In this document: positions 178 to 28,934 of the stretch, one piece after another
Layout: every line of letters begins with the position of its first letter
How positions within the stretch are numbered: the first letter of the stretch is position 1
Assembly (NCBI GenBank): GCA_964554415.1
Contig: CAZKON010000005.1
Span: 1 to 32,000, forward strand
Direction of reading: 5' to 3'
Origin: Candidatus Woesearchaeota archaeon
GTDB lineage: Archaea; Nanobdellota; Nanobdellia; Pacearchaeales; GW2011-AR1
DNA: 32,000 nucleotides
Notes under the pieces: generated by a model
What the model was told of the DNA's origin: nothing
What the model saw: the letters and a program-made list of their open reading frames with translations, nothing else
Databases searched by the model: none
Translations under genes and position numbers: made by a program

Positions 178-552
178 ATGGACCGCGGAAGAAAAATAAC
201 TGGAGGCAAATATCACAAGCAGCGGAAGCGCCGCCTCTTTGAAGTACAGAATGCAGAGCGCCATGTGATAATTGGCGAGCAGAAAAGGAAGCAGCTGCGC
301 GTGCGCTCAGGTTTGAAAAAAACAATCTTGCTGAGAGCAGATACTATAAATGTATGTGTTGGAAAAAAGATACAGCCTGCAAAAATTATTAACGTTGAAT
401 CAACGCCGCAAAACCAATTCTTGGCGCGCCAGAACAGACTGATAAAGGGGGCTATTATCGAAACCTCTATAGGCAAGGCAAAGATTACCAATAGACCAAG
501 TCAAGAAGGCAGTGTAAATGCAATCCTGCTTGAAACATCGAAAATCCTATAA
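178..552 (+). CDS. rps8e: 30S ribosomal protein S8e
   Basis: MDRGRKITGGKYHKQRKRR... and GAIIETSIGKAKITNRPSQEGSVNAILLE match the archaeal S8e pattern. I moved the start from 55 to ATG 178 because the TATA box lies inside the longer ORF. Confidence 0.9.
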   Translation: MDRGRKITGGKYHKQRKRRLFEVQNAERHVIIGEQKRKQLRVRSGLKKTILLRADTINVCVGKKIQPAKIINVESTPQNQFLARQNRLIKGAIIETSIGKAKITNRPSQEGSVNAILLETSKIL

Positions 553-565
553 TACCTCATGCAAT

Positions 566-585
566 CTCCCTGCTTAAGCAGGGAG
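566..585. repeat. Perfect 20-nt palindrome CTCCCTGCTTAAGCAGGGAG downstream of rps8e
   Basis: Read directly: an 8-bp stem with a TTAA centre. Confidence 0.8.
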
Positions 586-608
586 TAATAAAGGATTCTC
601 GAGTGTGC

Positions 609-651
609 TCAAGAACCACGACACGCCACCCACTTTAGTGGGTGGTTCTTG
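609..651. repeat. Bulged hairpin module TCAAGAACCAC-GACACG-...-GTGGGTGGTTCTTGA
   Basis: Inverted arms read directly. A closely related copy in the opposite orientation lies at 20126-20169. Confidence 0.8.
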
Positions 652-724
652 ACATAAAATAACGAATCAAACTATACTCTCTGTAAAAATTTTCCGTCGA
701 TAAAATTTTTCTCCAATAGAAAGG

Positions 725-758: not shown

Positions 759-780
759 CTTTCCATAATAAATAATAAAT

Positions 781-1810: not shown

Positions 1811-1891
1811 CTCTGGGTTAAAACCCAGAGGTTCTTTTGAGTCGTCAGAAACTTTCAGTTTCTGAACGCACCCAAGAACAGAAGTTCTTGG
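1811..1891. repeat. Three consecutive hairpin modules
   Basis: CTCTGGGTTAAAACCCAGAG (1811-1830), TCAGAAACTTTCAGTTTCTGA (1846-1866) and CCAAGAACAGAAGTTCTTGG (1872-1891). Confidence 0.8.
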
Positions 1892-2011
1892 TGTTTTCAG
1901 AACTCGAAAATCGGTTCGCGCACGCTCTGTGGCTTTAGCCCGGAGTAAGCGAACAGATTTTCTCAGTGTCAAGAATTTTCCGAATTATAGGATTACAACT
2001 TGAGCAACCTT

Positions 2012-12300: not shown

Positions 12301-14851
12301 CACGCAATGAATCATAACTATATTCTCCATCTTCATATCCTCTAGAGTTTGCGAGCAGCTCTTTCACAGGAACAGACCTTACACCTTTAGAGTCTTTGAT
12401 TTGTACCATATCCTCACCATGATTATCAAGCAGATACTGGCGATATTTTGGCACAGACTGGCTTGGCTCAATTGAACTGCTCAAAAATCCCGAAGTTTTA
12501 GGCACGCCTGCCTCGGCTTCTTTGATAGCTGAATTTACTTTCTGAATCTGTGCGTCAGCTATTTGCACATCACGATTTATTTCATCAGCATGCTTGCTAA
12601 AACACGCATCAAGTGATTTTGATGCCCCACTTGATACTTCTACTTGGCATCTGGCAGTCCACCCTTTATCTCCGCGCATTATTTGTTGTCGTGCAAATCC
12701 TGTCCCAGATAAACCAGTCACAAAATTCTTCACAGTCAAAGCACCCGCAGTAGCAAAGCACGCACCTTTCAAGCCAGAGACAACATTCCCGAGAGTGTTT
12801 GAAATCTGCTCCCACTTCCTGATGCTTTCATTTATAGTTGCAATCTTGCTTAATGTTGCATTTGGTGCAAGTTGAATAGCACGTTTTTCAATGCCTATGC
12901 GTATAGTTACATTCGTTCTGGTTTCTGTCCCCCATGCTTGTGGAGTTAAAGTGATTCTGGCAGAACGTTGCACATCAAGGCGTTGCAGAACAACAGGCTG
13001 CCCGCACACTACAACTGATTCACCAATACGCAAAGTAGGTTTGAAGTTCCTCTGAGATTCAGCAGGACAGCTAGTGCTGACAGTTATAAAATCAGACTCA
13101 ATACGCTGAATTGTCAAAGTCCGTTTATTCTTGTCAGTGCTTTGTGGAAGTTCATAAACCGTTCCTGCCTTCACAGTCACAGCTTTTGCTCCGATAGCAA
13201 GTGTTGCACTAGATTGTTCTCTCGGTTCTTCTATTGAAACAATCCTAATAGTTCTGAATCTGCCATTTATATCAACCGCAGAAGCTGCTCTTGAGAAATC
13301 AATATGCTCGCTCCGCGCAATCTCCTGTCTGTATGCTTCACTTTCAGGAGCATTAGGATATGTAGTCACATACATCTGAAGCAAACGCAGGCGCTGCTGC
13401 TCTTTGTTAAGAGTTGTTGCTAATGCAATTGCTTCTGCCAATGCATTCTGCCCATAAGGATTCCTTGCCGCAGAAGCTTTCTCAGCAGGATAATCTCGCG
13501 CTATCTGCTCAAACGCATGCAATGCCTCGCTAAAGTTCCCTTCAACTCCTTGAACCCCTGACCATGATTGATCTATAACAATATCTTCAGGAGCTACATG
13601 ACTCTCTCTCTCAAGCTGTCTGTATGCAATCATTGTTTCCCGCAATTGCTTTGTCATAGCATTATTAATAGCGAGCCTCCACTCTCCACTTGCCCACTGG
13701 TACAACAAATCAGAAGAAGTCAGATTATATTTCACTCCTTCAATTTCTACAAGATATGATTCTCCGTCTCTATAAGGGAAATTCTTTGTCCCATCATTTG
13801 CAACAAATAAGTCAAATGTCGCAGCCCCTTTAGCTCGCAGCTGAAGAACAAGAGTCTCTGAAAGGCAGCGCAAAGTTACGTTTCCGGTTCCAACGCTGGT
13901 GTTATCAAGCCTTATACTGGAAACAGTGCATTGACCATTTAAAATCCTGCTCCCTTCATAAACATCTACTACATCTGTGCTGTTGCTGCTTGTAATAGCT
14001 AGCCTTACTCGAGTCTGGCTGGCTTCATATCCAGTATAATCAACATACAATGCTGCACGGCAATAGCTCTCCGGCACAAATATCTCGCGTGACCTTGTTC
14101 CTTTTTCAACATGAGTAGTAGCAATTTGCCTGTCCCCGCTATAAATTGAAATATCTGCACCGCGCTCATCTGCATTTAATAACCTAATAAAATATTTCCC
14201 GTTCCAGAAGCTTTGGCGCTGGCTTTTATCAGACCATGCAAAATCATTCTGTTCTTCCAGCACAAACTCAGTTCTCCCGATGCCCAGTGCATTGCCTGCA
14301 TCATATTCAAGCCGCCCGCTTAAGTTAACAACTACTGATTCAGGTAATTCGCTTTCTCGTGGCTGCTTTTGAAGAACAATAACAGCATATCCTATATTAT
14401 TCAAAAGTGGGTCCCCCAGCAACCTATTACGAGTCACCAATCCGGCGCGCGCAGGGTGGAATCCAACAGCCACAACACCTTTTGGATACTCTTTATCAAA
14501 TCCAATACTCTTAATTTCTTTTACATTAAGAAGTGGGTTGATTTTTAACGCGTCAATCTGGCAGAATACAGGCACGTTTTGTTCTGCAAGCAAATCGCTT
14601 CTCACAACAGCAGGCTGGCATCCGGCAGGAGCGACCTGCAAGACAAAATCTTCCCGGTTCTTGCACTGAGAAGAATCATCTAAAATAGGCCAATAAGTGT
14701 TTGCCTGCGCACCATAATATGTTTGAAAACTTGCTTGATAGCTCGGTCTCGTCACATAAGTTGCAGAGCTATAAACCTGCGCGTTGGCAAAAACCGTGAA
14801 TAAAACAATAAAAATACAAATCAAAAATAACAGAATCGCATATCTTCTCAT
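9344..14851 (-). CDS. Giant secreted protein (1835 aa), family not recognised
   Basis: Uninterrupted 5.5-kb ORF with a Sec-type signal (ILLFLICIFIVLFTVFANA-QV). Its start overlaps the upstream stop as ATGA. No C-terminal TM segment. Confidence 0.9.
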   Translation of the reverse strand: MRRYAILLFLICIFIVLFTVFANAQVYSSATYVTRPSYQASFQTYYGAQANTYWPILDDSSQCKNREDFVLQVAPAGCQPAVVRSDLLAEQNVPVFCQIDALKINPLLNVKEIKSIGFDKEYPKGVVAVGFHPARAGLVTRNRLLGDPLLNNIGYAVIVLQKQPRESELPESVVVNLSGRLEYDAGNALGIGRTEFVLEEQNDFAWSDKSQRQSFWNGKYFIRLLNADERGADISIYSGDRQIATTHVEKGTRSREIFVPESYCRAALYVDYTGYEASQTRVRLAITSSNSTDVVDVYEGSRILNGQCTVSSIRLDNTSVGTGNVTLRCLSETLVLQLRAKGAATFDLFVANDGTKNFPYRDGESYLVEIEGVKYNLTSSDLLYQWASGEWRLAINNAMTKQLRETMIAYRQLERESHVAPEDIVIDQSWSGVQGVEGNFSEALHAFEQIARDYPAEKASAARNPYGQNALAEAIALATTLNKEQQRLRLLQMYVTTYPNAPESEAYRQEIARSEHIDFSRAASAVDINGRFRTIRIVSIEEPREQSSATLAIGAKAVTVKAGTVYELPQSTDKNKRTLTIQRIESDFITVSTSCPAESQRNFKPTLRIGESVVVCGQPVVLQRLDVQRSARITLTPQAWGTETRTNVTIRIGIEKRAIQLAPNATLSKIATINESIRKWEQISNTLGNVVSGLKGACFATAGALTVKNFVTGLSGTGFARQQIMRGDKGWTARCQVEVSSGASKSLDACFSKHADEINRDVQIADAQIQKVNSAIKEAEAGVPKTSGFLSSSIEPSQSVPKYRQYLLDNHGEDMVQIKDSKGVRSVPVKELLANSRGYEDGEYSYDSLRELHQNLLLQKNSGISNGTKANVEQRLETIGSSISINHALTEKYKSEQSLRAQGFPSPFTATPKSQGERYVEVAPVSAVQRGSKADMVFADGVTHLASVVVPPASSKDGKQYSGGTYLLGLQDAGNGAYTIRSVMKKEGSGANEVYSIHDGDTLNEISPATFSNTYGLGTLYSQQQLSYFNKYENPEVKFYDREPYKGMPAIVPFDLQRGWYAAAKQILPAFGGIGAFDASGRATSFWLCNVGANKREQFLEGLGDDVCEMVNLQTGQPLNKFPGLSDEEARALVVRAREALEQAARQHGNSRVTIAGTGDIRVGKPAVSVPAAQCQDFMSPGECNLIFNLCDPVICPATRCDFGGKYPVADVVQSGIIGSTLLCMPNFPEVKVPVCLTGIHAGIDSYVSILKAHRDCLQESVKSGQLVGICDQLYSVYTCEFFWRQLAPLAKVLVPRLLETAYGQGVRGGGEYLTVMGAWQNMQQSVNYFTQVYGVNAFKAFQARSVEEAGGEFCKSFISMRAPTSLKTVLAPDSPPQFHAYFSSVKYSDVTIPATANYKVYYHLYAGKDQGAYYRVYLKSPPQSSYYAVSPIIQVASGFVKKGDYRDETRDFTAPEGYQELCVNLNGEEKCGFKQVSTSFAVNYVRDAIVAEQIKESTVTSEKECISGSTSATALLNPNLQQGAQEAFNPEIYRRGVVRICATENPGTGTEPTRFVPVGRCDGEKVMCWLDKKSVDNAITDNNLGVKNATLQALEKVQRENLEKGGVLLREEEANTELNALQGSVEHVETSLSARGGGNLTTSELTEIQAILVRAGTVRNSLYLNYHKAQLLYLEGRVYSAIARQLAEIHLLKKERMTEKLPELNQEVKEKSSSEAKDVGVYSLHAGKTPDGVSADIVYAGEIPLDIYLIGNTFFIRIKTETQVQKIGSVSEYGIINIEESVINALSLPIVIHNHLLALQGKKYADLFSGSIQILAEPSSSGTFGYGEEYVENP

Positions 14852-16710
14852 GTGAATACCACCTCTGCTCGTTGCAGTGCAAATAATTCATAATTTGTCT
14901 GAAGCTGCGTCAGCGTTGTTGGTTTAGGTAAGGCAGGCACACTAATCTCCAGTGTTCCCTTTTCTAGTTCTGCAGGAAGAAGATAAGCACTTACACTTCC
15001 TCCGCCAACAAGAGCAGTATCAACCTTTGTTTCAGGCAGGTTAATATCATAACATTGCTCACGAGTTCCTCCAAACAATCCTGCAAAACCTGAACGAGGT
15101 ATAGTTGTGCATTCTCTGCTTGTGCTTGCAGGAATCGTAACGCCTGCATTGCCATATACATAAACAGTAATATTATAAGCACCCTCGCTAAGGCTGACAT
15201 TCTTCACTTCAGGATATACAACGCTGGTAGAGCCAGGACCTTCGAATGAAATAAGAATCAGTCCGGAAGTATTGGTTGCTCCGATAATTTCAACATCAAG
15301 ATTCAAAGTATATACTCTATCAAGAATAATTGTGCTTTCTTGAGAATCTACGCTTGAGAAAATTTGGCGTTGGGAAGCATATCCTTCAGCACTAACAGAA
15401 AGATAACCATTAAGGCATCCTGGAATCACTCCTTCAACACGACCTCCGGCACTCTTCCCAATCTGACAAATCTGATCAAAACAAGCGTATGCAACTTCTG
15501 CACCATCAATCGGCTTAAGCAGCACATCTCGGACATTTACGCTAACTGGTTGCGAAGCAAATGCGCATAGCTCTTCCTGCTCTTGCTCTTCAGCAATAGA
15601 TTGAGGGGATGCTTGTCTTGGAAGATTGTTATCTACACTCACAACCAAAGGAAATTGAAATAACTCATCATCTCTCGAGAGCTGCACCATGACAGGATAA
15701 CTAAAATCATATACAAAATGGTATGGCGCATAGCAAAATCCAAGTACGCCAAGTCCTTGCTGCAAGCCAACAGGTTCAGCAATCATAATTTCTTGTGATG
15801 CTCCGGAAATTTCTGTTTTGCTGGGCCATTTCGTAGAATACAGGAAGCTAACATGGTCATCAACATTATGCTCAACTACAAAATACTTGTTCTGGCTATT
15901 TTGAAGAGTATAATAGTCTCCCTTCATTTTTACAGCCGCAACATTCGCAGCCAGGCCTTCATGTAATTTTGAAACAACATCGCGCGTTTTCCAGACTTTC
16001 GGCGCGCAGCTCGTCTCAACGCCATCAACAGGTGCATAAAGATACAAAACATCACTCGAGTAATTTTCCAAAAAAGCGCTTTTTTGTTCATACTGATAAA
16101 TTGACAAAGCTTGGCTGTATAGTGCTCCAAACCTGCTAGGCACTTTTATGTTATGCGTTGTCCTACGCGAGCTGCCCTTGCTATCGCTCACAACAATATT
16201 TTGATTAATGCGAACACCAATAATATTATCATTAATCTCAATATCAACTTCAGGCAGCCCCATTGTAACATTTACACCCTGCTCTGCAAATATAGAGAAA
16301 TCACATTTCTGGATTGTAGACTCAATATGCTCTGCAAGCTCCTTCTCAATATCCTGCTTTTTAGGCACATTTTCTTTGATTACTCCATTGCTGCTGGGAT
16401 ATTGCCAATAAGGCACAGGAAAACCTAAAAAGTCAAGTTGTGATGAAAAAGGAGCATAATCGCTGCCAGGAATGAAAGAAGGAGTTTTGATGTATCCTCC
16501 CTGCGTTCCGGCAAGAGTTAAAGCTGCGCGCGTTTCTAGAACAACACACTCTTCATAATACTGAAACACCTGATCCGAGACGCGCTCTCCGCCTCTGAAT
16601 TCAGAAAGCTGCCACGCAACTGCCGCAATTCCAATCACTGCAACCAAAACAATAGAAATAATCACAAAAATACTTATCTGCCCTTTCTTCCATTGTATGG
16701 ATAACCTCAT
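14848..16710 (-). CDS. 620-aa extracellular protein with prepilin-like (class III) signal peptide
   Basis: N-terminus MRLSIQWKKGQISIFVIISIVLVAVIGIAAVAW. A beta-sandwich-like segment ...GYLSVSAEGYASQRQIF resembles the CarboxypepD_reg/PEGA pattern. Confidence 0.85.
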   Translation of the reverse strand: MRLSIQWKKGQISIFVIISIVLVAVIGIAAVAWQLSEFRGGERVSDQVFQYYEECVVLETRAALTLAGTQGGYIKTPSFIPGSDYAPFSSQLDFLGFPVPYWQYPSSNGVIKENVPKKQDIEKELAEHIESTIQKCDFSIFAEQGVNVTMGLPEVDIEINDNIIGVRINQNIVVSDSKGSSRRTTHNIKVPSRFGALYSQALSIYQYEQKSAFLENYSSDVLYLYAPVDGVETSCAPKVWKTRDVVSKLHEGLAANVAAVKMKGDYYTLQNSQNKYFVVEHNVDDHVSFLYSTKWPSKTEISGASQEIMIAEPVGLQQGLGVLGFCYAPYHFVYDFSYPVMVQLSRDDELFQFPLVVSVDNNLPRQASPQSIAEEQEQEELCAFASQPVSVNVRDVLLKPIDGAEVAYACFDQICQIGKSAGGRVEGVIPGCLNGYLSVSAEGYASQRQIFSSVDSQESTIILDRVYTLNLDVEIIGATNTSGLILISFEGPGSTSVVYPEVKNVSLSEGAYNITVYVYGNAGVTIPASTSRECTTIPRSGFAGLFGGTREQCYDINLPETKVDTALVGGGSVSAYLLPAELEKGTLEISVPALPKPTTLTQLQTNYELFALQRAEVVFT

Positions 16711-16838
16711 TTCTTCACCCCGCGTCGTACTCTCTCTCGTATAAGCTCAACAATTTCACTATTGATATCCTGTTCTAAATTAACTTTAAACTTTGCCCAT
16801 AATTCTTCATCCTCAATAAGAAGCAAGTATTTCTTCAT
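16707..16838 (-). CDS. 43-aa ribbon-helix-helix-like protein (not in the ORF track)
   Basis: Minus-strand translation MKKYLLLIEDEELWAKFKVNLEQDINSEIVELIRERVRRGVKK. The stop overlaps the next ATG (ATGA). The strand-helix-helix pattern is typical of CopG/RHH proteins. Confidence 0.55.
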   Translation of the reverse strand: MKKYLLLIEDEELWAKFKVNLEQDINSEIVELIRERVRRGVKK

Positions 16839-16868
16839 GCGCCCCTCTCCAAAAAAAGCAATACAAAA

Positions 16869-16925
16869 GACTATAAAAACCTTTCTTATTTATTAAATAA
16901 GTTAGTTACTTAGTTACTAATTAGC
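16869..16925 (-). promoter_or_regulatory. BRE/TATA (GAAAGGTTTTTATAG on minus) plus upstream palindrome and direct repeats
   Basis: The TATA centre is about 37 nt from ATG 16838, implying a leader of about 10 nt (GGAGAGGGGCGC). Upstream lie a 17-nt palindrome CTTATTTATTAAATAAG (16885-16901) and TTAGTTAC x2 (16902-16917). Confidence 0.5.
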
Positions 16926-16975
16926 AATAACCTGCGTATATCATATACTTTGAAAATTTTTGATTCCTGAGCGCA

Positions 16976-17451
16976 CTCAAGAATGCAATAGTTATCATTC
17001 TTAAGATATTGAAGACTTTGAAAAACCCCTATAGAGAGCTTTGAATAACCCTCCAATTTCGATGTCCCTCGAGGGTCGTCAGAAATCCATGATTTCTGAG
17101 CGCCTCGAGACACCAAGAACTTCTGTTCTTGGATGCATTCAAAAATCAAAGATTTTTGATGATCGGAGATTCTCTTAGTTTCAAAGCGGTTCGATAGAGG
17201 ACTTTGGGGTTTTTCAAAGTCCTCTATAATATAAAAAAACGATGCGCCCTCCGCACCTTAAAACGTTAGAAACTGAAAGTTTCTGAGCGCCTCGAGAATC
17301 GGAGAGTTTCTCAGCCTCGAGAACTACTGTTCTCTACGGCCGTCAAAAACCTCTGGTTTTTGAGGGATGCGGTTTGGGGAGGCGCTCGTTTCATCAGGAA
17401 TTCTGTGAATTCCTGAATGCCATCGAGAATGCGAACGCAGAGCATTCTCGA
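16976..17451. repeat. Dense array of at least 11 short hairpin modules
   Basis: Stems read directly at 16976-17005, 17079-17099, 17113-17132, 17139-17159, 17194-17227, 17266-17286, 17319-17334, 17343-17363, 17394-17416 and 17423-17451. Confidence 0.85.
17030..17227. mobile_element. MITE-like element, copy 1 (imperfect 16-nt inverted termini TATAGAGRRCTTTGAA)
   Basis: The left end TATAGAGAGCTTTGAA and the reverse complement of the right end TATAGAGGACTTTGAA match at 14 of 16 positions. The first ~81 nt are nearly identical to 20026-20106. Confidence 0.45.
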
Positions 17452-17477
17452 GGTTTTGATGTTCAATGTTATATCTT

Positions 17478-17864
17478 TTAAGAAGATACTTTTGGCGTAC
17501 AATCCTGCGGACAATTAAAACTATGTTCTTTTTGTCCGCAGATACCATCACCGCACTTAATACATACACTATCATAAAACATATCTGGTAATCGAACGGA
17601 CCCATCTCCAATGATTTTATATTGTTTTTCTAAAGCATCCTCAACTGCAGTGAGTCCTGTGCAGCAAGGGACATCCTTTACTATTTCTGGAGGAGATACA
17701 CCTTTATAAATTAAATTTTTTTCTCCTTCTTTGGCGCATAATGATGTTTTATTACTTAATGGAAGAGGTTGCGGAAAATTACGATTATCAAAAAATAAAT
17801 ACACACCAACTATAATAAGGACGATAATAAGTGTAAACGATAGAACTACTAATTTATTATTCAT
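17478..17864 (-). CDS. Signal-anchored Cys-rich small protein (128 aa)
   Basis: I moved the start to ATG 17864, which overlaps the upstream stop as ATGA. N-terminal TM LVVLSFTLIIVLIIVGVYLFF. C-terminal motif CIKCGDGICGQKEHSFNCPQDC. Confidence 0.65.
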   Translation of the reverse strand: MNNKLVVLSFTLIIVLIIVGVYLFFDNRNFPQPLPLSNKTSLCAKEGEKNLIYKGVSPPEIVKDVPCCTGLTAVEDALEKQYKIIGDGSVRLPDMFYDSVCIKCGDGICGQKEHSFNCPQDCTPKVSS

Positions 17865-18526
17865 TTTTCTTCCTCTGCAATGCACCGTCCATCTTCGCAG
17901 AGGCATTCTATTTTTTCTGCTGCCACTCCATTTTCATCGCAGTAGTATTCAAATAAAGTATCAGAAGATAAATCTGTTCTTTGTATTGGTATGAACCTAT
18001 TCACAAAACTGAAAGGATACCAACAGAAATCAGCAAGAGTCTTTCTTCCTCCTTTGATAAGAAGCTTCCCCTTTTTATCATACTTTAGCCCACCATCAGT
18101 ATCTGTACAGAGGAAAGCCTCCTTATTCCATAATGAAACAAACACTTGAGGAGTATATCCTACAACCTCTCGTGCAAGAATGACATCAACTTGAAGAATG
18201 ATGCCCTCGTTTACATCACTTATTTTATAAGATGAACCCTCATACATTGTATCTGTAACAAACTCATTCCCTTCTTCATCTCTAATTTTAATCTTAGTCT
18301 TCTTTGAATCAACGTACTCTACAGACACAATAAAATTTTGGTTCTGGACAGTTATTTCTTGAGAATATCCTTCAGAAAGCACTATTCTCGTTGGGGCAGG
18401 ACCAGAAGTATCATTTCTCGAAATTACATTTCCAGTTAGTTTTGGTTTGAGAAGAAAGAGAGAAACTCCAATGAGCAGCACAAGAATTATAAAGAAATGG
18501 ATTTTTCTACCTTTACTTTTTCTCAT
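17861..18526 (-). CDS. Signal-anchored secreted protein (221 aa) with a Cys-rich C-terminal domain (CTDTDGG...EYYC...C.C)
   Basis: The minus-strand TATA (plus 18547-18559) lies about 27 nt from ATG 18526. Hydrophobic N-terminus FFIILVLLIGVSLFLL. Confidence 0.7.
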   Translation of the reverse strand: MRKSKGRKIHFFIILVLLIGVSLFLLKPKLTGNVISRNDTSGPAPTRIVLSEGYSQEITVQNQNFIVSVEYVDSKKTKIKIRDEEGNEFVTDTMYEGSSYKISDVNEGIILQVDVILAREVVGYTPQVFVSLWNKEAFLCTDTDGGLKYDKKGKLLIKGGRKTLADFCWYPFSFVNRFIPIQRTDLSSDTLFEYYCDENGVAAEKIECLCEDGRCIAEEEK

Positions 18527-18731
18527 GATAACGTTAAGTATATCTATCTTTTTATATGTTTGTTTTTTCTCTAAATTATAGCCAAGAAATTTAATAATTG
18601 AATAGTTAGTCGTTAGCTATAGCATGATAGCGTATGCTTAAAAATCACCTTCGTTTTTAATAGAAAAACATTTGGCTCACCTATAGAAAGTTGAAATTCA
18701 ATCCGAAGGTTGAAACCTTTAAGGGTTTCTT

Positions 18732-19325
18732 TCAACTACTTGTCATAAAATCAATGCTTTTGTTGTGATGTACCGCTATAAACGCAATAAGTCCGCATAA
18801 TAAAAAAAACATCATCGCCAAGTTAATGATAACAGGCATATCTAAGCGTAAGATTGAAGTACCACTCTCTGCGCGTACACTTTCCAGAAGCCCATTATTC
18901 CTCAGAGCATTCTCTGAAACATTTACGACAATCCAGGTTCCAATTCCACCTATACTCTGGGCAGGTTGCATCAAAAGCACCCCTCTATAAATCCCGGATT
19001 CTTTACTGACAACACAAAAAGGTATAGAAAAACTTCCAGCATTTACCCATACTATCTCAGGATGCTCAACAATTAAACCAACATCGCGAGCTGAAAAAAA
19101 ATAATCTTCCAGATTTCTGCTTGGATTAGCTGACCAAGCGCTTTGCAAAAGAAGTGCATCACTGCCATATACAGAAACATCAAAAGCAGTACAATTTGGG
19201 GTTCCGGCAGTATTCTGCAAAAATATATCTGGAGGAGCGCTAATTTCAATAGCGCAAGCAGGAGGTACAAAGAATAAAGCACAAATCAAAAAGAATAATC
19301 TGATTACACTTTTGTCCGAAGCCAT
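18732..19325 (-). CDS. Secreted protein with a C-terminal TM anchor (197 aa)
   Basis: Signal peptide ending PPACA-IE. C-terminal hydrophobic segment INLAMMFFLLCGLIAFIAV. Lies 6 nt downstream of the preceding gene. Confidence 0.7.
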   Translation of the reverse strand: MASDKSVIRLFFLICALFFVPPACAIEISAPPDIFLQNTAGTPNCTAFDVSVYGSDALLLQSAWSANPSRNLEDYFFSARDVGLIVEHPEIVWVNAGSFSIPFCVVSKESGIYRGVLLMQPAQSIGGIGTWIVVNVSENALRNNGLLESVRAESGTSILRLDMPVIINLAMMFFLLCGLIAFIAVHHNKSIDFMTSS

Positions 19326-19331
19326 AATAAT

Positions 19332-19784
19332 TTACACAGCAGTCGCCCAGAACACGACAGTCGCACGATGGTTGGGAATATTCTGGGGTATGCTATCAGT
19401 ATACTGACGCAAATCTAATTGCGCGTAGAAGTAATCATCTTCACTCTGCCCAATGGCACGAGGACGTGGGATATTCATTTTGAATGTCCCTATTGGCTTG
19501 AATTCTTCAGTAGTCCGTCTGGCGAGAATTAAATTAGAAAAAATTTTATCCTGTGTTTCTAGCCGTGGAATAAATTGAACAGCAGTCGTGCCGGTATTAT
19601 TGACAACTATCTTAACCCTTTCAGAAACAAATCCGGGGCTTACCCTGCCAAAAGAAACCATCTCTGGAACTTGCACGCGCACAACCGGCGCAAGTACATT
19701 CGCATCTACAATCATGCGCTCGCTTTGTTCAGCAGCAGCGAAAGGCACTAAGAAAAAAATAAATGCAAGCAACCAATATCTCAT
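19332..19784 (-). CDS. Small secreted beta-rich protein (150 aa)
   Basis: I moved the start to ATG 19784. The minus-strand TATA (plus TATTTAAA, 19806-19813) is 26 nt away. Signal MRYWLLAFIFFLVPFAAA-EQ. Confidence 0.7.
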   Translation of the reverse strand: MRYWLLAFIFFLVPFAAAEQSERMIVDANVLAPVVRVQVPEMVSFGRVSPGFVSERVKIVVNNTGTTAVQFIPRLETQDKIFSNLILARRTTEEFKPIGTFKMNIPRPRAIGQSEDDYFYAQLDLRQYTDSIPQNIPNHRATVVFWATAV

Positions 19785-19939
19785 TATATACAAAAGCAGT
19801 AAATATATTTAAATCTTCGTATATAAATTATATACGAGCTTAATCCATTATACCCTCTCGTTCCTCTCTTGCTGCGGAGTTCCTCGGCTAAAGAGCTGCG
19901 GACTTCCTCGCTGCGGAGTCGCTGCGCTAACTCGCCACA

Positions 19940-20010
19940 TGGCCCTGCCCAGAATCGAACTGGGGCTTCGTCCACGTCAAGGATGCGTTCTACCATTAGA
20001 CTACAGGGCC
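19940..20010 (-). tRNA. tRNA-Val (anticodon GAC)
   Basis: Acceptor GGCCCTG/CAGGGCC, T arm CCCAG-TTCGATT-CTGGG, anticodon loop TTGACGT. My hand fold leaves one A.C pair in the anticodon stem and one C.A pair in the D stem. Confidence 0.8.
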
Positions 20011-20025
20011 TTCTTTCTGCAAGCG

Positions 20026-20257
20026 TATAGAGAGCTTTGAATAACCCTCCAATTTCGATGTCCCTCGAGGCTCGTCAGAAATCATGGATTTCTGAGCGCC
20101 TCGAGAATCGGAGATTCTCTTAGTGTCAAGAACCACCCACTGAAGTAGGTGGCGTGTTGTGGTTCTTGAGCACAGTCAAGAATTACGTTTGCGCAATCCC
20201 CCTACTTTAGTTTGTGGTTAAGCAAACGTAATTCTTGATGTTTCAAAGTCCTCTATA
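20026..20257. mobile_element. MITE-like element, copy 2 (same termini as 17030-17227, different internal hairpin cargo)
   Basis: Left end identical to copy 1 for 45 nt. Right end TTCAAAGTCCTCTATA. Interior holds hairpins at 20075-20095 and 20126-20169, and a 17-bp stem at 20176-20192/20222-20238. Confidence 0.45.
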
Positions 20258-20307
20258 ACTATATAGCTAACGACATTAAAATCTGATTGTTTTGTCGTTA
20301 GCTATCA

Positions 20308-20497
20308 AGTGAAAGACGTACAATATTGTTTATTACATTTTGAGTTGAATACTCCGCAGCTTGCTGCTGCTCAAAATGTAATTAGAGAATTCCGTCTTGA
20401 ACCGAGTGCAATACCCCGCAGCTTGCTGCGGAGAGAGCGAAGCGAACGATGGGATGCACGAGGTTAGGAATTCTCTTTATTACTTACGTCTTTCACT
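20308..20497. ncRNA. Candidate structured element or RNA (multi-stem, about 190 nt), strand unresolved
   Basis: Five nested perfect stems. P1 is 20308-20320/20485-20497 (13 bp). P2 is 20332-20344/20370-20382 (13 bp). P3 is 20384-20393/20467-20476 (10 bp). P4 is 20400-20410/20455-20465 with a tandem G.A/A.G. P5 is 20416-20421/20426-20431. Confidence 0.3.
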
Positions 20498-20530
20498 ATA
20501 TATAAGTCTTTTTCTTGAGGCTGAAATAAG

Positions 20531-22081
20531 CTAATCCATGCGTAAAACTAAAGTTCCCTTCCTCACAAGTTTTTTCATCTCAGTTTCAGTTAATTTATAG
20601 GGAGAATGTAATAAAGGCCTGAATTCGATAAAATATGGAGACCCTTTGTTATAATCCGCACATTCTGCCATGCCCAAGCCAGTAGGTAATTTAGCGATGA
20701 GATTGCTGATAACTGCTCCATGTCTTTCTCTTACACGTTTGATATCACCTTCATATCTCGTATGCACCTGTATCTCCGTGCCTATGTTTCCTCTGATAGC
20801 TCCTTTAAAGTCAGTCAGTACCTGTGAAATCATCAGCAATCCAATGCCCCACTTCCTGAATTCACGCACAGCCTGCTCAAGTTTTGTGTATGCCTTTCTA
20901 CCTCCATACTTCGGCAGCAGTCTGTGAACTTCGTCAAGTACAAGCAAGGATTGCAATGAGCCTGATTCTGGCAAGTTAGCACTATAAATCTGACTTAAAG
21001 CAGCATCAATAAATTCATCAACTTTACGGGGAGTCAGCTTATCAAGGCGGAACACAGTCATGCCTTTCATGAAAAGATAATGTATAATGTCAACATGCAT
21101 TGTTGCATCAGTAATTTCAATAACATATGGATTAAACGCTTGAGGAAGTCCAAGACCAAATTTATTATATTTCTTGCGCATACGTTCATCTGTATTCTTC
21201 TTAGCAAATCCCGACCATTGCCCAATCGGATCAAAGACAATAACAGGCAAGCTGCGTTTCAATAATTCTTCAGCAATAACCATCCCTGTAATTGTCTTCC
21301 CGCTTCCAGTACCTCCGGCAATCAAAGTGTGTCTGTTCAATTGCGTATGATCCAGATACGCTTTCTCATCGCTGTCAGCAACAATTCCAACGTATGCATA
21401 TTTTGATTGTGGAAGCGTAAAAAAGTCAGGGAAAGGATACTGGCTGTTTTTCTGTCTCTCTTCGTATTTTTTCTTAAGCAAGCCTTTTCTAAGCCAAAAA
21501 ACATAGTAAACTCCGGCGAATATAACAAAAGAAGCAGCAGCAATGCTAAGAAAGAAAGAAAGATGTTCCTGCAGCCATGGCGTTGCAATCATACGCTCAA
21601 TAGTAATAGGATAAGATATTATAACAGAATTTTGAGAAGTGCTTATATTGACTAAAAAAACATAATTCCCCTCTGGAACAACATCTGGCAATCCCAAACG
21701 GCTTGTTAAAATAAAAGACTCATTCTTGTCAACTCTCTCATCTTTCCGTAGAAAGCTCTGGTTGCTATTCGCGTTAACAATTTCATAAATAAAGATAAAA
21801 GGCTCAGTATTTTCCTGATTCGCACGTGTTACATTAACGCTAAAAAGAATAGCCCTGCCAGGAGAAACTTGAGAGCCGCGGGCAACCTGTAAAGAAACAT
21901 TTGCCAGTACACCTCCCTCCGCATTAGTCAGCACTCCAGTCAAAGAAGATTGAGATTTTGGCTCCAGTGGAAATGATACACGTCCGAATGCTCCAATAAT
22001 TGATGAATTGTACACCCACGCAATAATAAGAATACCTAATATCAAAGTGAAAACAAAAAAAATGATTTTATTTTTTGGCAC
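20531..22081 (-). CDS. Membrane-anchored HerA/FtsK/VirB4-like P-loop ATPase (DUF87-type), 516 aa
   Basis: Walker A IAGGTGSGKT, Walker B LLVLDEVH, RKWGIGLLMISQ block. Two TM segments (residues ~5-25 and ~175-197) flank a predicted external domain of about 150 aa. GTG start preceded by GGTGAG. Confidence 0.85.
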   Translation of the reverse strand: MPKNKIIFFVFTLILGILIIAWVYNSSIIGAFGRVSFPLEPKSQSSLTGVLTNAEGGVLANVSLQVARGSQVSPGRAILFSVNVTRANQENTEPFIFIYEIVNANSNQSFLRKDERVDKNESFILTSRLGLPDVVPEGNYVFLVNISTSQNSVIISYPITIERMIATPWLQEHLSFFLSIAAASFVIFAGVYYVFWLRKGLLKKKYEERQKNSQYPFPDFFTLPQSKYAYVGIVADSDEKAYLDHTQLNRHTLIAGGTGSGKTITGMVIAEELLKRSLPVIVFDPIGQWSGFAKKNTDERMRKKYNKFGLGLPQAFNPYVIEITDATMHVDIIHYLFMKGMTVFRLDKLTPRKVDEFIDAALSQIYSANLPESGSLQSLLVLDEVHRLLPKYGGRKAYTKLEQAVREFRKWGIGLLMISQVLTDFKGAIRGNIGTEIQVHTRYEGDIKRVRERHGAVISNLIAKLPTGLGMAECADYNKGSPYFIEFRPLLHSPYKLTETEMKKLVRKGTLVLRMD

Positions 22082-22145: not shown

Positions 22146-22219
22146 GCCTCTATAGCTCAGTCGGATAGAGCATCAGTTTTGTAAACTGAGGGTCGGGGGT
22201 TCGAATCCCCCTAGAGGCT
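22146..22219 (+). tRNA. tRNA-Thr (anticodon TGT)
   Basis: Fully paired cloverleaf: GCCTCTA/TAGAGGC, D arm GCTC/GAGC, anticodon arm TCAGT-TTTGTAA-ACTGA, T arm GGGGG-TTCGAAT-CCCCC. Confidence 0.95.
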
Positions 22220-22548
22220 TACTCAAACTCTTTCTCCACAAACCTCCCCGCCTTCTTTACCTCTCGTTCAGCCAACCTTACTTCTTTTCTGACAGTACGC
22301 TCAACAACACGCGCTTCTTGCTTTATCTTTCTCAGCAATCGCTGCGCCCAGACAAACTCTCCTCCAAGAATGCTCAATCCAATAATTATAGTAAGCCATC
22401 CGGGTCCAGGAATAATCAGCAAAGCAAGACCTATAAGAAGAATCGTTGCTCCAACAACAGCAATTATAATTTTCCATATGTGCTCTATAGATAAACGCAC
22501 TGCTAAAGGCACTACTTTAGTCTTTGGATAATCTGTTGAAATTCTCAT
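22219..22548 (-). CDS. PGPGW-motif small membrane protein
   Basis: LIIPGPGWLTIIIGLSILGGEFVW matches the PGPGW transmembrane family pattern. ATGA overlap with the upstream gene. Confidence 0.7.
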   Translation of the reverse strand: MRISTDYPKTKVVPLAVRLSIEHIWKIIIAVVGATILLIGLALLIIPGPGWLTIIIGLSILGGEFVWAQRLLRKIKQEARVVERTVRKEVRLAEREVKKAGRFVEKEFE

Positions 22549-23108
22549 AGTTCATCAGCATAACGCGCCTTGCCGCTTGAAACAAGAAGCGATGAGACTT
22601 CAAAATCCAAATGAGCCAGTTCGCCCTCATTAAAAGGTCCAACCACATTTCCCCCCATATCAACAAATTGTTCAGTGTTTTGGATAAAAATAATCATACT
22701 CTGTTTCTGCTCTGCCTTTCCAAGTTGTTTGTCGCCATGAAGCAGTCTGGCCAATTCGCGGTCTCCTTCCTCAAACGTCTTGGTTAATGTGTCAAAAGTT
22801 TTTCGCTCGAAAGGCAACATATATTCATAATCTCGCTTCATAATGCCCGTCTCGCTTGCAACAAACATTAAGTTCAAGAGTTTCTTCTTCCGGCGCAGAA
22901 TAAGTTCCTTAAAGAGAGAAATAGAATTCTCAAGCTGCTTCTTAGATGTCCCTATATTATCAAGAAGGGGCGAGTCATCAGCAGGAGTTTGTACTCTTTG
23001 TTCTTGTAAAAAAGCCGCAACATCTGCGATAATTGTGTTTGGTAGCTGCTGTAAGGTCTCAGAGTACTTCTCACGTCTTAATATCTCATAAAGCTCTGAA
23101 TAATTCAT
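22545..23108 (-). CDS. GINS complex subunit Gins51-like
   Basis: N-terminal helical A-domain (YSELYEILRREKYSETLQQLP) and C-terminal B-domain (FVDMGGNVVGPFNEGELAHL...LLVSSGKA). I moved the start to ATG 23108, 26 nt from the minus-strand TATA (plus 23128-23138). Confidence 0.7.
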   Translation of the reverse strand: MNYSELYEILRREKYSETLQQLPNTIIADVAAFLQEQRVQTPADDSPLLDNIGTSKKQLENSISLFKELILRRKKKLLNLMFVASETGIMKRDYEYMLPFERKTFDTLTKTFEEGDRELARLLHGDKQLGKAEQKQSMIIFIQNTEQFVDMGGNVVGPFNEGELAHLDFEVSSLLVSSGKARYADEL

Positions 23109-23180
23109 CTCATAAAAACGCAAAAAAGCTATATAAAGATATAGCTAAAAGAAAACAGAAGGTACTTCCGACACTCATCA

Positions 23181-23192
23181 GATTTATAAATC
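23181..23192 (+). promoter_or_regulatory. Palindromic TATA box GATTTATAAATC for ftsY
   Basis: The centre is 26 nt upstream of ATG 23212. Confidence 0.55.
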
Positions 23193-23211
23193 TCCTCCCT
23201 CTGTTTCTGGC

Positions 23212-24315
23212 ATGTTTGACTTTTTAAGAAAGAAAATTACAGGATGGCTTGGTAAGAAGGAAAAGAAGGTAAGTAAAAAGAACAAAAAAGAGAGCAAGAA
23301 AAAAAAGACAGAGAAAAAATCTCGGAAAGGTGAAGAAAAAAAGAAAAAAACGCAGGTAATTCTCACCGAGCAGGTTCATTCAAGTAAAGAAACAGAATTA
23401 ATCAGTCAGTCGCCGAGCCAGCAAGAAGAACAAACAAGAGAAAATTTCTTCACGCGCCTTGTCAGGCGTATTGTCACTTCAAAGCTTACCTCAGAGCAAT
23501 TCGACGAGATATTTATGGAGCTTGAACTGACACTGCTGGAAAACAATGTCGCTCTCGAAGCAGTAGACAAAATCAGGGAGCGCCTTGCTGCTCAATTAGT
23601 TGGGAAAGAAACAAAAAAATCAGACGCACCTGCATTCGTTCTTACTGCCCTAAAAGATTCTGTCCTTTCTTTATTAATTGAACCTCCGAATCTGTTCGAA
23701 CAAATCAAATCCTCTTCCTCCACATATATCATCCTTTTCTTCGGAATCAATGGCACAGGTAAAACAACTTCTGTGGCAAAGCTAGCGCATTTTCTGAAAA
23801 AACAAGGCATCTCTTGTGTCCTTGCAGCCGCCGATACATTCAGAGCTGCTTCCATTGAACAGCTTAAAACACATGCTGAACGCCTCAAAATGCCTTGCAT
23901 CGCCTCGCAGTACGGTGCAGACCCTGCTTCTGTTGCTTTTGATGCCATCGCTTACGCAAAAAAGCACACTCTCAAAGCAGTGATTATTGATACTGCCGGC
24001 CGTATGTATACCCAAGAGAATTTGCTCAAGGAAATGGAAAAAATTGTTCGTGTTACGAAGCCAAACCTCAAGCTCTTCGTCGGCGAGTCAATAACAGGAA
24101 ATGATGTAATTGATCAGGCAAAAACTTTCAACGAATCAATCGGAATAGATGGAATAATTCTCACAAAAGCAGACATAGACGAAAAAGCAGGCGCAATTCT
24201 TTCTGTTTCCCATGTCACAGGAAAGCCGATTTATTTCTTGGGTACCGGACAGGGTTATGACGATTTGACGCCCTTTACGAAAAAGGCAGTGTTGAAGAAT
24301 TTAGGGTTAGAATAA
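23212..24315 (+). CDS. ftsY: Signal recognition particle receptor FtsY
   Basis: Lys/Glu-rich A region followed by an NG domain with GINGTGKTTS, DTAGR and TKADIDEKAG motifs. Confidence 0.95.
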   Translation: MFDFLRKKITGWLGKKEKKVSKKNKKESKKKKTEKKSRKGEEKKKKTQVILTEQVHSSKETELISQSPSQQEEQTRENFFTRLVRRIVTSKLTSEQFDEIFMELELTLLENNVALEAVDKIRERLAAQLVGKETKKSDAPAFVLTALKDSVLSLLIEPPNLFEQIKSSSSTYIILFFGINGTGKTTSVAKLAHFLKKQGISCVLAAADTFRAASIEQLKTHAERLKMPCIASQYGADPASVAFDAIAYAKKHTLKAVIIDTAGRMYTQENLLKEMEKIVRVTKPNLKLFVGESITGNDVIDQAKTFNESIGIDGIILTKADIDEKAGAILSVSHVTGKPIYFLGTGQGYDDLTPFTKKAVLKNLGLE

Positions 24316-24316
24316 C

Positions 24317-24769
24317 ATGATATTCCTCCACCTTATCTTCGGGCTTGTTGTAGGCAGCCTTTATGGAAATTATACGTTATTTTTTATTGGAGCGTCCATG
24401 CTTCCTGACATCGACCATTTCTATTTGATTTTAAAGCACAATCTCTTCTCCATAAGAAGTGCTATCAAAGTTCTCAAAAAAGAGGAACGGCACGGTATTC
24501 ACTTCAAAACCCCATTCATGCATTCCATCTTCGGTCTCCTTGTATGTTCGCTTCTTTTTTTTGTCATAACACAGAACTCAAAGTTAACACTCTTCCTTGG
24601 GCTCATGTATCTCTCTCATCTCCTCCTCGACTGGCCGGATATCGATAAAAAACAATATTTCTTCCCTTATAAAAAAGAGTTTAGAGGATTCCTCCCTATC
24701 TGGTCAAAAACAGAGAAGATTATTACGTTAATTGCACTGGTCGCCGTAGCCATTATTTACATGCTATAG
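24317..24769 (+). CDS. DUF457/YdjM-like membrane-bound metal-dependent hydrolase
   Basis: Multi-TM protein with PDIDH, HS and DWPDID motifs. Starts 2 nt after the ftsY stop. Confidence 0.6.
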   Translation: MIFLHLIFGLVVGSLYGNYTLFFIGASMLPDIDHFYLILKHNLFSIRSAIKVLKKEERHGIHFKTPFMHSIFGLLVCSLLFFVITQNSKLTLFLGLMYLSHLLLDWPDIDKKQYFFPYKKEFRGFLPIWSKTEKIITLIALVAVAIIYML

Positions 24770-24803
24770 AGGATTTTGACAAACCCCTAAAGTCCTCCAT
24801 AGA
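24765..24803. repeat. Solo hairpin related to the MITE termini (TATAGAGGATTTTG-ACAAACCCC-TAAAGTCCTCCATAGA)
   Basis: Imperfect inverted arms. The loop AAACCCCTA is shared with 17021-17031. It overlaps the TAG stop of the upstream gene. Confidence 0.6.
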
Positions 24804-24814
24804 AACTCTTCACG

Positions 24815-25513
24815 TTACTGCAAAGGCTTCTTCGCTTTAAATGCAGAATGGCCAAAAAGACCGATATCATACATCTCCTTTTGATGAAGAGCAGCAAGAA
24901 AGATATCTTCTTCAGCCCGTGTAACAAGACCAACACGCTTTAATAAAAAACGAAGCGGTCTGACAAGGTTTGCACGTCGGTCAACATCCTGCATAGAAGG
25001 ACCGATTGCTCTCGTCGTATCGCGCAATTCAATGTCTTTAAATCCTGCTTTTTGCAATGCACCCTTCATTTCTGCAGGAGTACACATTGCTGTAAGCGCA
25101 AATCCCTTACAGTAATTCTGGTCAAGCACTCGTTCCCGATCAGTAGAAGGTTTCCGAAGATACACACCATCCTGAATAACGAGAATCCCTTCAGGCTTTA
25201 AAATACGGTACATCTCCTGATAGAGGGGTAAGGGGTTAGGAGAGGCATAGCAAAAACTTTCAATGGCAAAAATCTTATCAAATTGCTTATCGTCAAAACC
25301 AGTATCAAAATAATTACGCTGAAGAAACAGTACGCGTTTAGCAAGGTCGCGTTGCTGCAAGAAGCGATGAGCATAACGGATTTGCTCATCAGAAATCGTA
25401 ATACCAATATAACGAGTGTCAGTATGCTCGGCAAGCCACAACGACGCGCCTCCAACACTGCATCCTGCATCTAAGATAAGTTCTCCTGTTTGCGGACGAA
25501 TCAATTCTTTCAC
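24815..25513 (-). CDS. Class I SAM-dependent methyltransferase, catalytic part (downstream of an in-frame TGA)
   Basis: Motif I ILDAGCSVGG and post-I/II blocks (YIGITIS, ILKPEGILVI). The GTG 'start' lies 2 codons after an in-frame TGA. Confidence 0.75.
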   Translation of the reverse strand: MKELIRPQTGELILDAGCSVGGASLWLAEHTDTRYIGITISDEQIRYAHRFLQQRDLAKRVLFLQRNYFDTGFDDKQFDKIFAIESFCYASPNPLPLYQEMYRILKPEGILVIQDGVYLRKPSTDRERVLDQNYCKGFALTAMCTPAEMKGALQKAGFKDIELRDTTRAIGPSMQDVDRRANLVRPLRFLLKRVGLVTRAEEDIFLAALHQKEMYDIGLFGHSAFKAKKPLQ

Positions 25514-25516
25514 AAG

Positions 25517-25720
25517 TCAATATTGATTAAGAAAGGCTTCACTTCGAGGAGTTTTGGGAGTTTCATAAAAACCGTAATGAATACCTAAACTTTCTTGATC
25601 ATACCAGAACCGATGATACCACTTAGTAACGCGATTATAAAAATCACTCACTCGACGAATATGTTTCTGGGGACTTGCATCAGAGAGAAGAGTTGAATGA
25701 GAAAATGTATGGGATCTCAT
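25517..25720 (-). CDS. N-terminal fragment of the same methyltransferase
   Basis: Same frame as 24815..25513. FYNRVTKWYHRFWYDQESLGIHYGFY is the usual N-terminal region of this methyltransferase class. ATGA overlap with the NUDIX gene. Confidence 0.6.
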   Translation of the reverse strand: MRSHTFSHSTLLSDASPQKHIRRVSDFYNRVTKWYHRFWYDQESLGIHYGFYETPKTPRSEAFLNQY

Positions 25721-28923: not shown

Positions 28924-28934
28924 CATTATAGCTA

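Follow-up and report, generated by a model that had tools for sequence, protein, structure and literature searches.

Hairpin modules in two orientations in a woesearchaeal genome: probable loop inversion in place and a long cassette present both ways within a family of nested repeats

The first 32,000 nucleotides of a Candidatus Woesearchaeota contig (CAZKON010000005.1; this whole stretch is hereafter the window) carry hairpin modules that read one way at some positions and as the reverse complement at others, which raises the question of whether such hairpins are inverted in place, between flanks that stay as they are, or come to lie at a site in either orientation. The original prediction had described two cases, a short hairpin with a CAT or an ATG loop (case 1) and a 44-nt bulged module (case 2), both set in flanks of unchanged direction, and had offered hairpin inversion or orientation-independent insertion of palindromic elements as the cause. 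The present analysis points to a two-tier family of nested mobile repeats, in which case 1 is an in-place inversion of the loop of the first hairpin (hp1) of a 51-nt cassette and case 2 is a longer cassette present in opposite orientations, a reading to which a probability of roughly 0.6 is assigned. Of the two causes offered, hairpin inversion fits case 1 and orientation-independent insertion fits case 2, but neither fits both. The two hairpins of case 1 are the following.

20075..20095, plus strand: hp1 in its 'flop' form, TCAGAAATC-ATG-GATTTCTGA, loop at 20084-20086
17079..17099, plus strand: hp1 in its 'flip' form, TCAGAAATC-CAT-GATTTCTGA, loop at 17088-17090

Both lie inside an 81-nt direct repeat (17030-17110 and 20026-20106, 95% identity), the two copies of which differ at four positions, namely one G/C change and the loop triplet. 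Only the 3-nt loop is reverse-complemented; flanks, asymmetric internal loop (TCG/GCGC) and second cassette hairpin (hp2) all run the same way in both copies. The predicted relation, CAT and ATG loops that are exact reverse complements in same-direction flanks, holds to the letter, with one other difference in the repeat. A second pair in the window behaves in the same way, since the hairpins at 1845 (loop TTC) and 17266 (loop GAA) are 100% complementary over 19 nt (1845-1863 and 17268-17286), keep the 3' flank (A/G)CGC in the same orientation, and have a stem that differs from that of the CAT/ATG pair.

Copies in other genomes extend this picture. A scan of the GTDB representatives, a set that lies apart from the window's own genome, with an 18-mer from the flank recovered four contigs of one Ca. 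Woesearchaeota metagenome-assembled genome (MAG), CAZCXX01, that carry the same repeats, the other 19 matches of the 18-mer being chance matches, and a metagenome search with the pattern TCGTCAGAAAN{5,10}TTTCTGARCGC yielded 42 loci. The window and the collected loci (numbered with the prefix L) form a comparison set of about 396 kb with 53 hp1 matches, or about 45 distinct hp1 copies; these sequences were assembled from short metagenome reads, and the flips are read from the assemblies. In the related Woesearchaeota MAG, elements that are about 99% identical show the TTC/GAA swap with unchanged flanks (L016 against L018 and L024), and over 142 nt L016 differs from L018 by two substitutions and the loop. 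With TCG-hp1-RCGC as the fixed reading direction, the loops found on the two stem types are these.

ATC-stem hp1 loops: CAT (window 17079); ATG (window 20075, L041); TTC (L016, L024); GAA (L018, L024)
ACT-stem hp1 loops: TTC (11 matches, 8 distinct loci); GAA (L033/35/53, window 17266); GGA (L030)

Under uniform placement of differences, the chance that all three loop sites differ as the exact reverse complement is 1.7e-6 for the window pair and 7.9e-7 for L016/L018; a further candidate flip pair, AAT/ATT, was dropped because its members are one substitution apart. The hp1 hairpin has the longest perfect stem (9 bp), with 99.6% of cells paired and covariation at stem pairs 8 and 9, and its loop is unconstrained. 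Flips are confined to hp1, as none was found in 20 hp2a or 9 hp2b loops. The hp2a loop is GGA, GAA or AAA in 19 of the 20 copies and the hp2b loop is A-rich in all nine; this purine-rich loop looks constrained, which may also mask flips in hp2. A subfamily of hp1 with G-first loops (GCC, GCT, GCA, GTA, GTT), represented by about 10 distinct loci, yielded no reverse-complement form. Given that hp2 is never flipped, that the G-first ratio is 10:0 and that repeatedly recovered loci agree with one another, the flips are best described as a rare mutation that spreads with the element rather than as a switch or a coin toss at each transposition.

The conserved flanks of these hairpins are themselves a mobile element similar to a miniature inverted-repeat transposable element (MITE), a circumstance that the original prediction had overlooked. 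Two composite copies surround the case 1 hairpins, and one target site is empty in the window.

20027..20256, plus strand: composite MITE-like element 2, with core ends AGAGAGCTTTGAA... and ...TTTCAAAGTCCTCT and AT/AT borders, holding a 51-nt cassette and, in reverse, a long cassette of 117 nt
17031..17227, plus strand: composite MITE-like element 1, with core ends as in element 2 and AT/AT borders, holding a 51-nt cassette at site 1 with a nested reverse cassette
765..766, plus strand: core target TTTCC-AT-AATAA, empty here and filled in L043; the tfb start codon follows 13 nt downstream

In an alignment of 24 copies, similarity starts sharply at (T)ATAGAGAGCTTTGAATAACCCTCC and stops at TTTCAAAGTCCTCTAT(A), limits that may also be read as (T)ATAGAGAGC and CCTCTAT(A), and the DNA beyond is unrelated among loci. 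The minimal core measures 95 nt, and the elements fall into size classes of 95, 102, 115, 146, 197-201 and 230 nt. The terminal inverted repeats are imperfect (AGAGAGCTTTGAA / AGAGGACTTTGAA; AGAGAGC... on the left, ...GTCCTCT on the right) and consistently paired, ATAGAGAGCTTTGAA agreeing with the reverse complement ATAGAGGACTTTGAA at 13 of 15 positions. The dinucleotides abutting AGAG...CTCT match directly in 25 of 27 copies, TT/TT (L018) and CT/CT (L030) counted in and AA/AA (L040) coming in addition, and they are mostly AT (AT/AT tallied in 24 of 27 copies); because they match directly and not in inverted form, they represent a 2-bp target duplication rather than a longer inverted repeat. 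Insertion usually took place at AT within a TATA-like sequence. The decisive comparison is that with L043, which is syntenic with the window (ribosomal protein S8e; TFB, with 98.7% amino-acid identity; tRNA-Leu; a large open reading frame): the site reads ...TTTCC-AT-AATAAATAATAAATATG (tfb start) in the window and ...TTTCC-AT-[core + two cassettes]-AT-AATAATATATG in L043. This pair of empty and filled orthologous sites proves directly both the mobility of the core and the 2-bp AT duplication. As single-stranded DNA, element 2 folds with -51.2 kcal/mol (z = -9.2 against shuffles) and element 1 with z = -8.2 against shuffles.

The position of these elements relative to genes was also recorded. 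They often adjoin tRNA genes (window 19940-20026; L036, L061, L044), and a gap of 16 nt separates the 5' end of tRNA-Val (19940-20010, minus strand) from the left end of element 2 upstream of it, so that the promoter region of this tRNA must lie inside the element. In L043 (reverse strand, about 4718-4930), the core and its two cassettes occupy the presumed 5' leader of tfb, downstream of a TTTAAATA box, a predicted placement under which the element must either be transcribed with tfb or supply a promoter. Predicted open reading frames (ORFs) in L016 (from 2708, plus strand) and L063 (from 2266, reverse strand) run through MITE copies, and the MITE-encoded peptide stretches common to them (PQSPLSNRFE...SKLSI) falsely linked unrelated proteins in clustering; such read-through ORFs can mislead both gene calling and the clustering of proteins in these MAGs.

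The second tier of the family consists of cassettes inserted in the core and elsewhere. The 51-nt type has the plan CG, hp1 (TCAGAAAYN-NNN-...TTTCTGA), RCGC, hp2 (e.g. CTCGAGAATC-GRA-GATTCTCTYAG), and the 95-nt and 146-nt forms of the element differ by exactly one such unit. The copies in the window and an unfilled target are as follows.

20073..20123, plus strand: 51-nt cassette at core site 1, consisting of CG, hp1, GCGC and hp2 (CTCGAGAATC-GGA-GATTCTCTTAG)
17077..17178, plus strand: cassette of the same type at core site 1, broken at 17110/17111 by a nested cassette
17111..17161, minus strand: the nested 51-nt cassette, reading on that strand CA-TCAAAAATC-TTT-GATTTTTGA-ATGCAT-CCAAGAAC-AGAA-GTTCTTGG-TG
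1843..1893, plus strand: 51-nt cassette within a composite at about 1795-1990, with hp1 at 1845-1865, TCAGAAACT-TTC-AGTTTCTGA
17264..17314, plus strand: 51-nt cassette, with hp1 at 17266-17286, TTAGAAACT-GAA-AGTTTCTGA
20356..20367, plus strand: empty cassette target GCAGC-TT-GCTGC, which forms a hairpin loop in a third repeat family

The cassette boundaries are precise. Core site 1, GAGGGT^TTTCAAAGCGG, is occupied in the window copies, L036, L063 and L065, and site 2, GGGGTT^TTTCAAAGTCC, which is the loop of the right-end hairpin, in L016, L018, L024 and L042; L059 and L043 have both sites filled. In the window (20356-20367) and in L018 the loop GCAGC-TT-GCTGC is unoccupied; L049, L058, L060, L064 and L043 hold a cassette there, exactly between the Ts. 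As the number of Ts is equal in empty and filled sites, the cassettes inserted without target duplication. Their targets comprise the two core positions, the loop of another repeat and other cassettes, on either strand. The nested cassette at 17111-17161 is an inverted copy of the type at 1843-1893 (81% complementary over 53 nt) inserted in the hp2 of its host, and L043 contains another case of a cassette within a cassette. The four bases upstream of the cassette differ among sites (GGGT, GGTT, AGCT, GAGT, CGAT, AAAA), and T^T alone recurs. Among the other repeat families of the window, GAGTNNAATACYCCGCAGCTTGCTGC (20342, 20404) is one that serves as a cassette target.

Case 2 concerns a second, longer type of cassette, which is represented in the window by two copies in opposite orientations.

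20124..20240, minus strand: long two-hairpin cassette, reading on that strand CA-hpA-CTGTGC-hpB-CA, with hpB the bulged module at 20126-20169 and hpA at 20176-20238
536..654, plus strand: long two-hairpin cassette, with hpB the bulged module at about 609-652, overlapping the last S8e codons

The plan of this type is CA, hpA, (G/C)TGTGC, hpB, CA, over about 117-119 nt. The reverse-complement relation between the two bulged modules is real and their bulges do lie on opposite arms, but the same-direction left flanks that had been taken as the fixed frame are not homologous. The inverted match between the modules extends over 60 nt at 92% (595-654 against 20124-20183) and takes in the left flank of the copy at 609, ATTCTCGAGTGTGC, the counterpart of which, CAGTCAAGAAT, stands to the right of the module at 20126; the apparent flank in the same direction at 20112 (GATTCTCTTAGTG) is the 3' arm of hp2 of the neighbouring cassette, a non-homologous position, and its resemblance to the flank at 609 reflects only the ATTCTNGA-like sequence common to every arm of the family. 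In five of five copies, drawn from three genomes, the bulge lies on the arm beside the GTGC linker and the loop reads CTTYAG on that strand. Bulge orientation thus co-varies with the true flanks (GTGC linker, terminal CA) in every copy, the very outcome that the original prediction had set against its own proposal of a flip in place. Case 2 is the whole cassette present in either orientation and not a flip within fixed flanks.

The inner stems of the long cassettes vary (window 626-645, 566-585 and 1935-1945; L016, L022, L063), and almost throughout their inner loop reads, on one strand, C-TT(T/C/A)A-G, in the variants CTTTAG, CTTCAG and CTTAAG; a strand-specific loop motif combined with changing stems hints that some factor recognizes the folded hairpin. 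The long cassette at 536 starts within the last S8e codons (536-552) and provides the stop codon, so that the window protein ends in ...LETSKIL and that of L043 in ...LEAK.

With the architecture in place, the way in which the hp1 loops were turned can be considered. An exact reverse complement in place, set between the arms of a perfect inverted repeat, is the mark that an inter-strand template switch during replication, or recombination between the arms, leaves behind. It is found for CAT/ATG and twice for TTC/GAA, each time between perfect 9-bp arms and with the orientation of TCG/RCGC and of hp2 fixed, and the surroundings are nearly identical in the CAT/ATG pair and in L016/L018; the copies compared are paralogous and come without a rooted element tree, each locus being seen in one state. 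An inter-strand template switch is the most likely route, with stem-mediated recombination as the other. The nascent strand would leave its template after copying one hp1 arm, copy the loop from the complementary strand, with the palindromic arm as homology, and then return; recombination between the two hp1 arms would be an equivalent route, and the flipped copies would then propagate as the element multiplies. Both this route and the direction of each flip, as well as the way in which cassettes insert and the enzyme that inserts them, we infer from the sequences.

Several observations weigh against this interpretation. Each flip comprises three informative bases, and these lie in hypervariable loops, which change about five times as fast as the flanks; three differing loop positions are seen in many pairs whose flanks are 80-90% identical. 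A rough test over the whole set is weak: 12 distinct ATC-stem loops yield 3 reverse-complement pairs where about 1 would be expected, and AAT/ATT is among the 3. No orthologous locus was found in both loop states, the roughly ten that turned up in two or more metagenomes agreeing throughout, and the flips are known from assemblies. Regarding the cassettes, the T^T junction occurs in three well-defined contexts only, and the junction at 17264 is AAAA|CG. No transposase-like multicopy ORF or autonomous partner was found in the approximately 396 kb of partial genome sequence examined; in the same sequences, no pair of terminal repeats more than 400 nt apart encloses an ORF. ORF clustering gave what look, to judge by eye from sequence, like AAA ATPase, PIN-like, TrmB-like and UvrD-like proteins, and an apparent 10-member ORF cluster was partly joined by peptides translated from the MITE itself. 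Finally, template switching and conversion by an oppositely oriented copy give an identical sequence product.

This last point leads to the alternative that survives best, although it is judged unlikely, namely ectopic conversion, in which the loop is overwritten from an oppositely oriented copy elsewhere in the genome, the palindromic stem letting an inverted donor align equally well. Cassettes do occur on both strands of the same genomes, and each genome uses a single hp1 triplet, in one orientation or the other (CAT/ATG in the window; in CAZCXX01 TTC/GAA, twice each), which could reflect concerted evolution; nevertheless, this uniformity is equally explained by recent amplification from one master copy, the homology of 9 bp per side is very short for RadA-type recombination, and no conversion tract was seen reaching into the asymmetric flanks.

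It is improbable that a longer perfect palindrome (stem-XYZ-Z'Y'X'-stem, or ...ATCCATGGAT...) lost either half of its centre independently. Perfect palindromes are unstable at their centres, and TCAGAAATCCATGGATTTCTGA yields either window form by a single 1-nt deletion. A perfect-palindrome ancestor with a CCATGG centre suits the window pair and not TTC/GAA, for which exact 3-nt deletions on alternate sides would be needed in two stem subfamilies, and no such copy was found; indeed, there is no perfect palindrome among the 53 matches (about 45 distinct copies), though the N{5,10} of the search pattern allowed them.

The loop might instead be an unconstrained, fast-evolving spacer, its reverse-complement relations being coincidental, as its high rate, the common three-difference pairs, the modest set-level excess and the one-step AAT/ATT pair would allow. 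This explanation is rendered quite improbable by the two closest informative pairs (the window pair, with 1 other difference in 78 nt, and L016/L018, with 2 in 139 nt), which are both exact reverse complements; the chance is about 1e-5 for each pair even if loops evolve five times faster than flanks, the rate that the data suggest, and a third exact pair (1845 and 17266) stands on a different stem.

That hp1 is an independent palindromic unit inserting at TCG^GCGC in either orientation, or that its orientation is randomized at each transposition through a hairpin intermediate, seems very improbable: the larger cassettes do occur both ways (17111-17161; 20124-20240 against 536-654), but no cassette with an empty TCG-GCGC was seen, all 20 hp2a-type cassettes directly follow an hp1, and orientation is not 50:50, the G-first subfamily standing at about 10:0 and the ACT stems at 8 distinct loci to 3. 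An assembly artefact at the palindrome or a programmed invertible switch is scarcely credible, for, although the assemblies are of short reads and contigs often end in these repeats, a k-mer of at least 13 nt across flank, arm and loop should fix the loop orientation, so that a flipped loop would need real reads, the flips occur in three independent assemblies (window, CAZCXX01, JGI), by which considerations the artefact was set aside, and a switch would have an invertible segment of only 3 nt, with no recombinase gene nearby and with the same state at repeatedly recovered loci.

A bolder interpretation, put forward tentatively and more likely wrong than right, is that the 51-nt cassettes are a distinct, undescribed class of ultra-small mobile elements, which would integrate strand-specifically and without duplication at T-T in single-stranded hairpin loops by means of a hairpin-recognizing enzyme, the hp1 flips being a by-product. 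If so, the targeting of other mobile elements' loops by cassettes would build nested hairpin arrays, and the flips would not be ordinary replication errors.

Further members of the family and other repeats are scattered over the window, which has 16 perfect hairpins with a stem of at least 8 bp against 3.8 +/- 2.0 in dinucleotide shuffles (fourfold) and 9 hairpins of the TC[AG][AG][AG]AA type against 0 in such shuffles.

About 1795-1990 (~200 nt): second composite repeat, between tfb and tRNA-Leu, missing from the orthologous spacer of L043
17343..17451, strand not assigned: further family-type hairpins in one intergenic tract, TCAAAAACC-TCT, TCAGGAATTC-TGT and TCGAGAATGC...GCATTCTCGA
6948-6968 and 29240-29261: other family-type hairpins

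Other repeat families occupy 20262-20440 and 28930-29303, with a 64-nt repeat (20268 / 29025) and a 57-nt repeat (28930 / 29153), and a further repeat, GATTATTAAT..., occurs at 26304, 29004 and 29280. In Rfam, even at a permissive E <= 1 over 400-2200 and 16800-20600, tRNAs were the only matches, the hairpins corresponding to no curated family, and neither cassette nor core has a copy in the viral contigs, plasmids or phages searched. Logan and NCBI look-ups of neighbouring proteins gave contigs that cover 18604-19869 and 22175-25544, none spanning either hairpin, and three further window proteins were without record. One of these contigs (L026, Logan SRR12113384) matches the window at 100% over 18604-19869, and its last 19 nt diverge at 18604, beside a repeat at 18577-18647; this end would represent a strain variant or else a break of the assembly at the repeat.

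The host is a DPANN archaeon (Woesearchaeota/Pacearchaeota-like), with a TFIIB gene present and with Nanoarchaeota and Pacearchaeota MAGs as the closest named relatives of its FtsY, an identical copy of which is encoded on an NCBI contig of 38.9 kb; the genes of the window include TFIIB (tfb), SRP54, FtsY and ribosomal protein S8e together with three tRNAs. Beside tRNA-Leu (2047-2130), about 6-7 kb of the window (2200-9600) are missing from the syntenic L043, in which only about 1.5 kb separate the tRNA from the large ORF. Over roughly its first 4 kb (about 2000-6000), this extra segment has a GC content of 0.48-0.51 against about 0.40 elsewhere. A nucleotidyltransferase/HTH pair and an N6/N4 DNA methylase (2564-3388, minus strand) are among its genes, and the segment probably represents an island that integrated at the tRNA. 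At 9344-16710 (minus strand) lie adjacent ORFs of 1835 aa and 620 aa with no Pfam match, the former with about 86% nucleotide identity in L043, and a further ORF without a Pfam match (8492-9331) contains, at 8555-8667, a 56-57-nt unit repeated twice in tandem (89% identity).

Taken together, the window belongs to a streamlined DPANN genome with layered tiny repeats, a 95-nt MITE, 51-nt cassettes inserted in loops and longer two-hairpin cassettes, which turn over between close relatives beside promoters, tRNA genes and gene ends (tfb in L043, tRNA-Val, S8e). The hp1 flips would be a clean natural example of loop inversion in archaeal DNA, and they advise caution, given that three clustered 'substitutions' in a hairpin loop may be one event. 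The mobilizer, once found, could reveal a new hairpin-directed integration activity and explain the fragmentation of MAGs at such sites.

Among known systems, the closest to the flips are loop-only inversions at perfectly paired hairpins by inter-strand template switching, documented in rRNA and miRNA genes (PMC8794818; PMC5453318), and the small hairpin-associated inversions that are common in plastid DNA (PMC6824564). In these, as here, a segment within a perfect inverted repeat becomes its exact reverse complement with stem and flanks untouched, the change recurs independently, and differences cluster in the loop; here, in contrast, the inversions sit in copies of a mobile repeat that a DPANN archaeon carries many times over, and the loops measure 3 nt and the stems 9 bp. 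Such 'small/minute inversions' were reportedly described in plastid DNA by Kelchner and Wendel in 1996.

The core compares with prokaryotic MITEs of the IS630/Tc1 type, which have 2-bp duplications, and a census of MITEs found a very high density of them in a 'Woesearchaea genome' (PMC11602168). Shared features are the length of 95-230 nt without an ORF, terminal inverted repeats, the 2-bp duplication, the intergenic position, many copies with unrelated flanks, and presence or absence at an orthologous site; the core differs in that AT (in the frame AGAG...CTCT) and not the canonical TA is duplicated, that no matching transposase was found, and that it serves as a scaffold on which cassettes accumulate.

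With REP/BIME/REPIN sequences and their RAYT (PMC3116915), the cassettes share the clustering of short, imperfect palindromes that face either way, the short conserved linkers that join them, an orientation-defining bulge and compensatory changes in stems. In contrast to them, the present units have no GTAG-type 5' tetranucleotide and start with CG-TCAGAAA or CA-TCRAGAA, the host is an archaeon, and the units are bounded by precise insertion junctions. No RAYT or Y1 transposase was found in the window, and no RAYT in the approximately 396 kb examined.

IS200/IS605-derived PATEs insert without duplication and in a strand-specific orientation, have a hairpin at each end and nest in the hairpins of other repeats. 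The cassettes likewise conserve the T count and carry hp1 and hp2 at their ends, but they have no conserved 4-5-nt 5' target beyond T^T, and neither TnpA (Y1) nor TnpB was detected. Small dispersed repeats of cyanobacteria reportedly also nest in the hairpins of other repeats (Elhai and colleagues, 2008).

The flip/flop of parvoviruses and adeno-associated virus (AAV) concerns the terminal hairpins of a linear single-stranded DNA genome, which are turned by hairpin transfer at each replication in a ratio of about 50:50. The likeness lies in two hairpin forms related by the reverse complement of the asymmetric part; the hairpins considered here differ in being internal to a chromosome, between cellular genes, and in their skewed ratios (about 10:0 and 8:3), and they do not belong with that system. 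The literature consulted yielded no description of this element family or of its cassette architecture. In summary, the nested family of MITE and cassettes appears undescribed, and the type of inversion is a known one.

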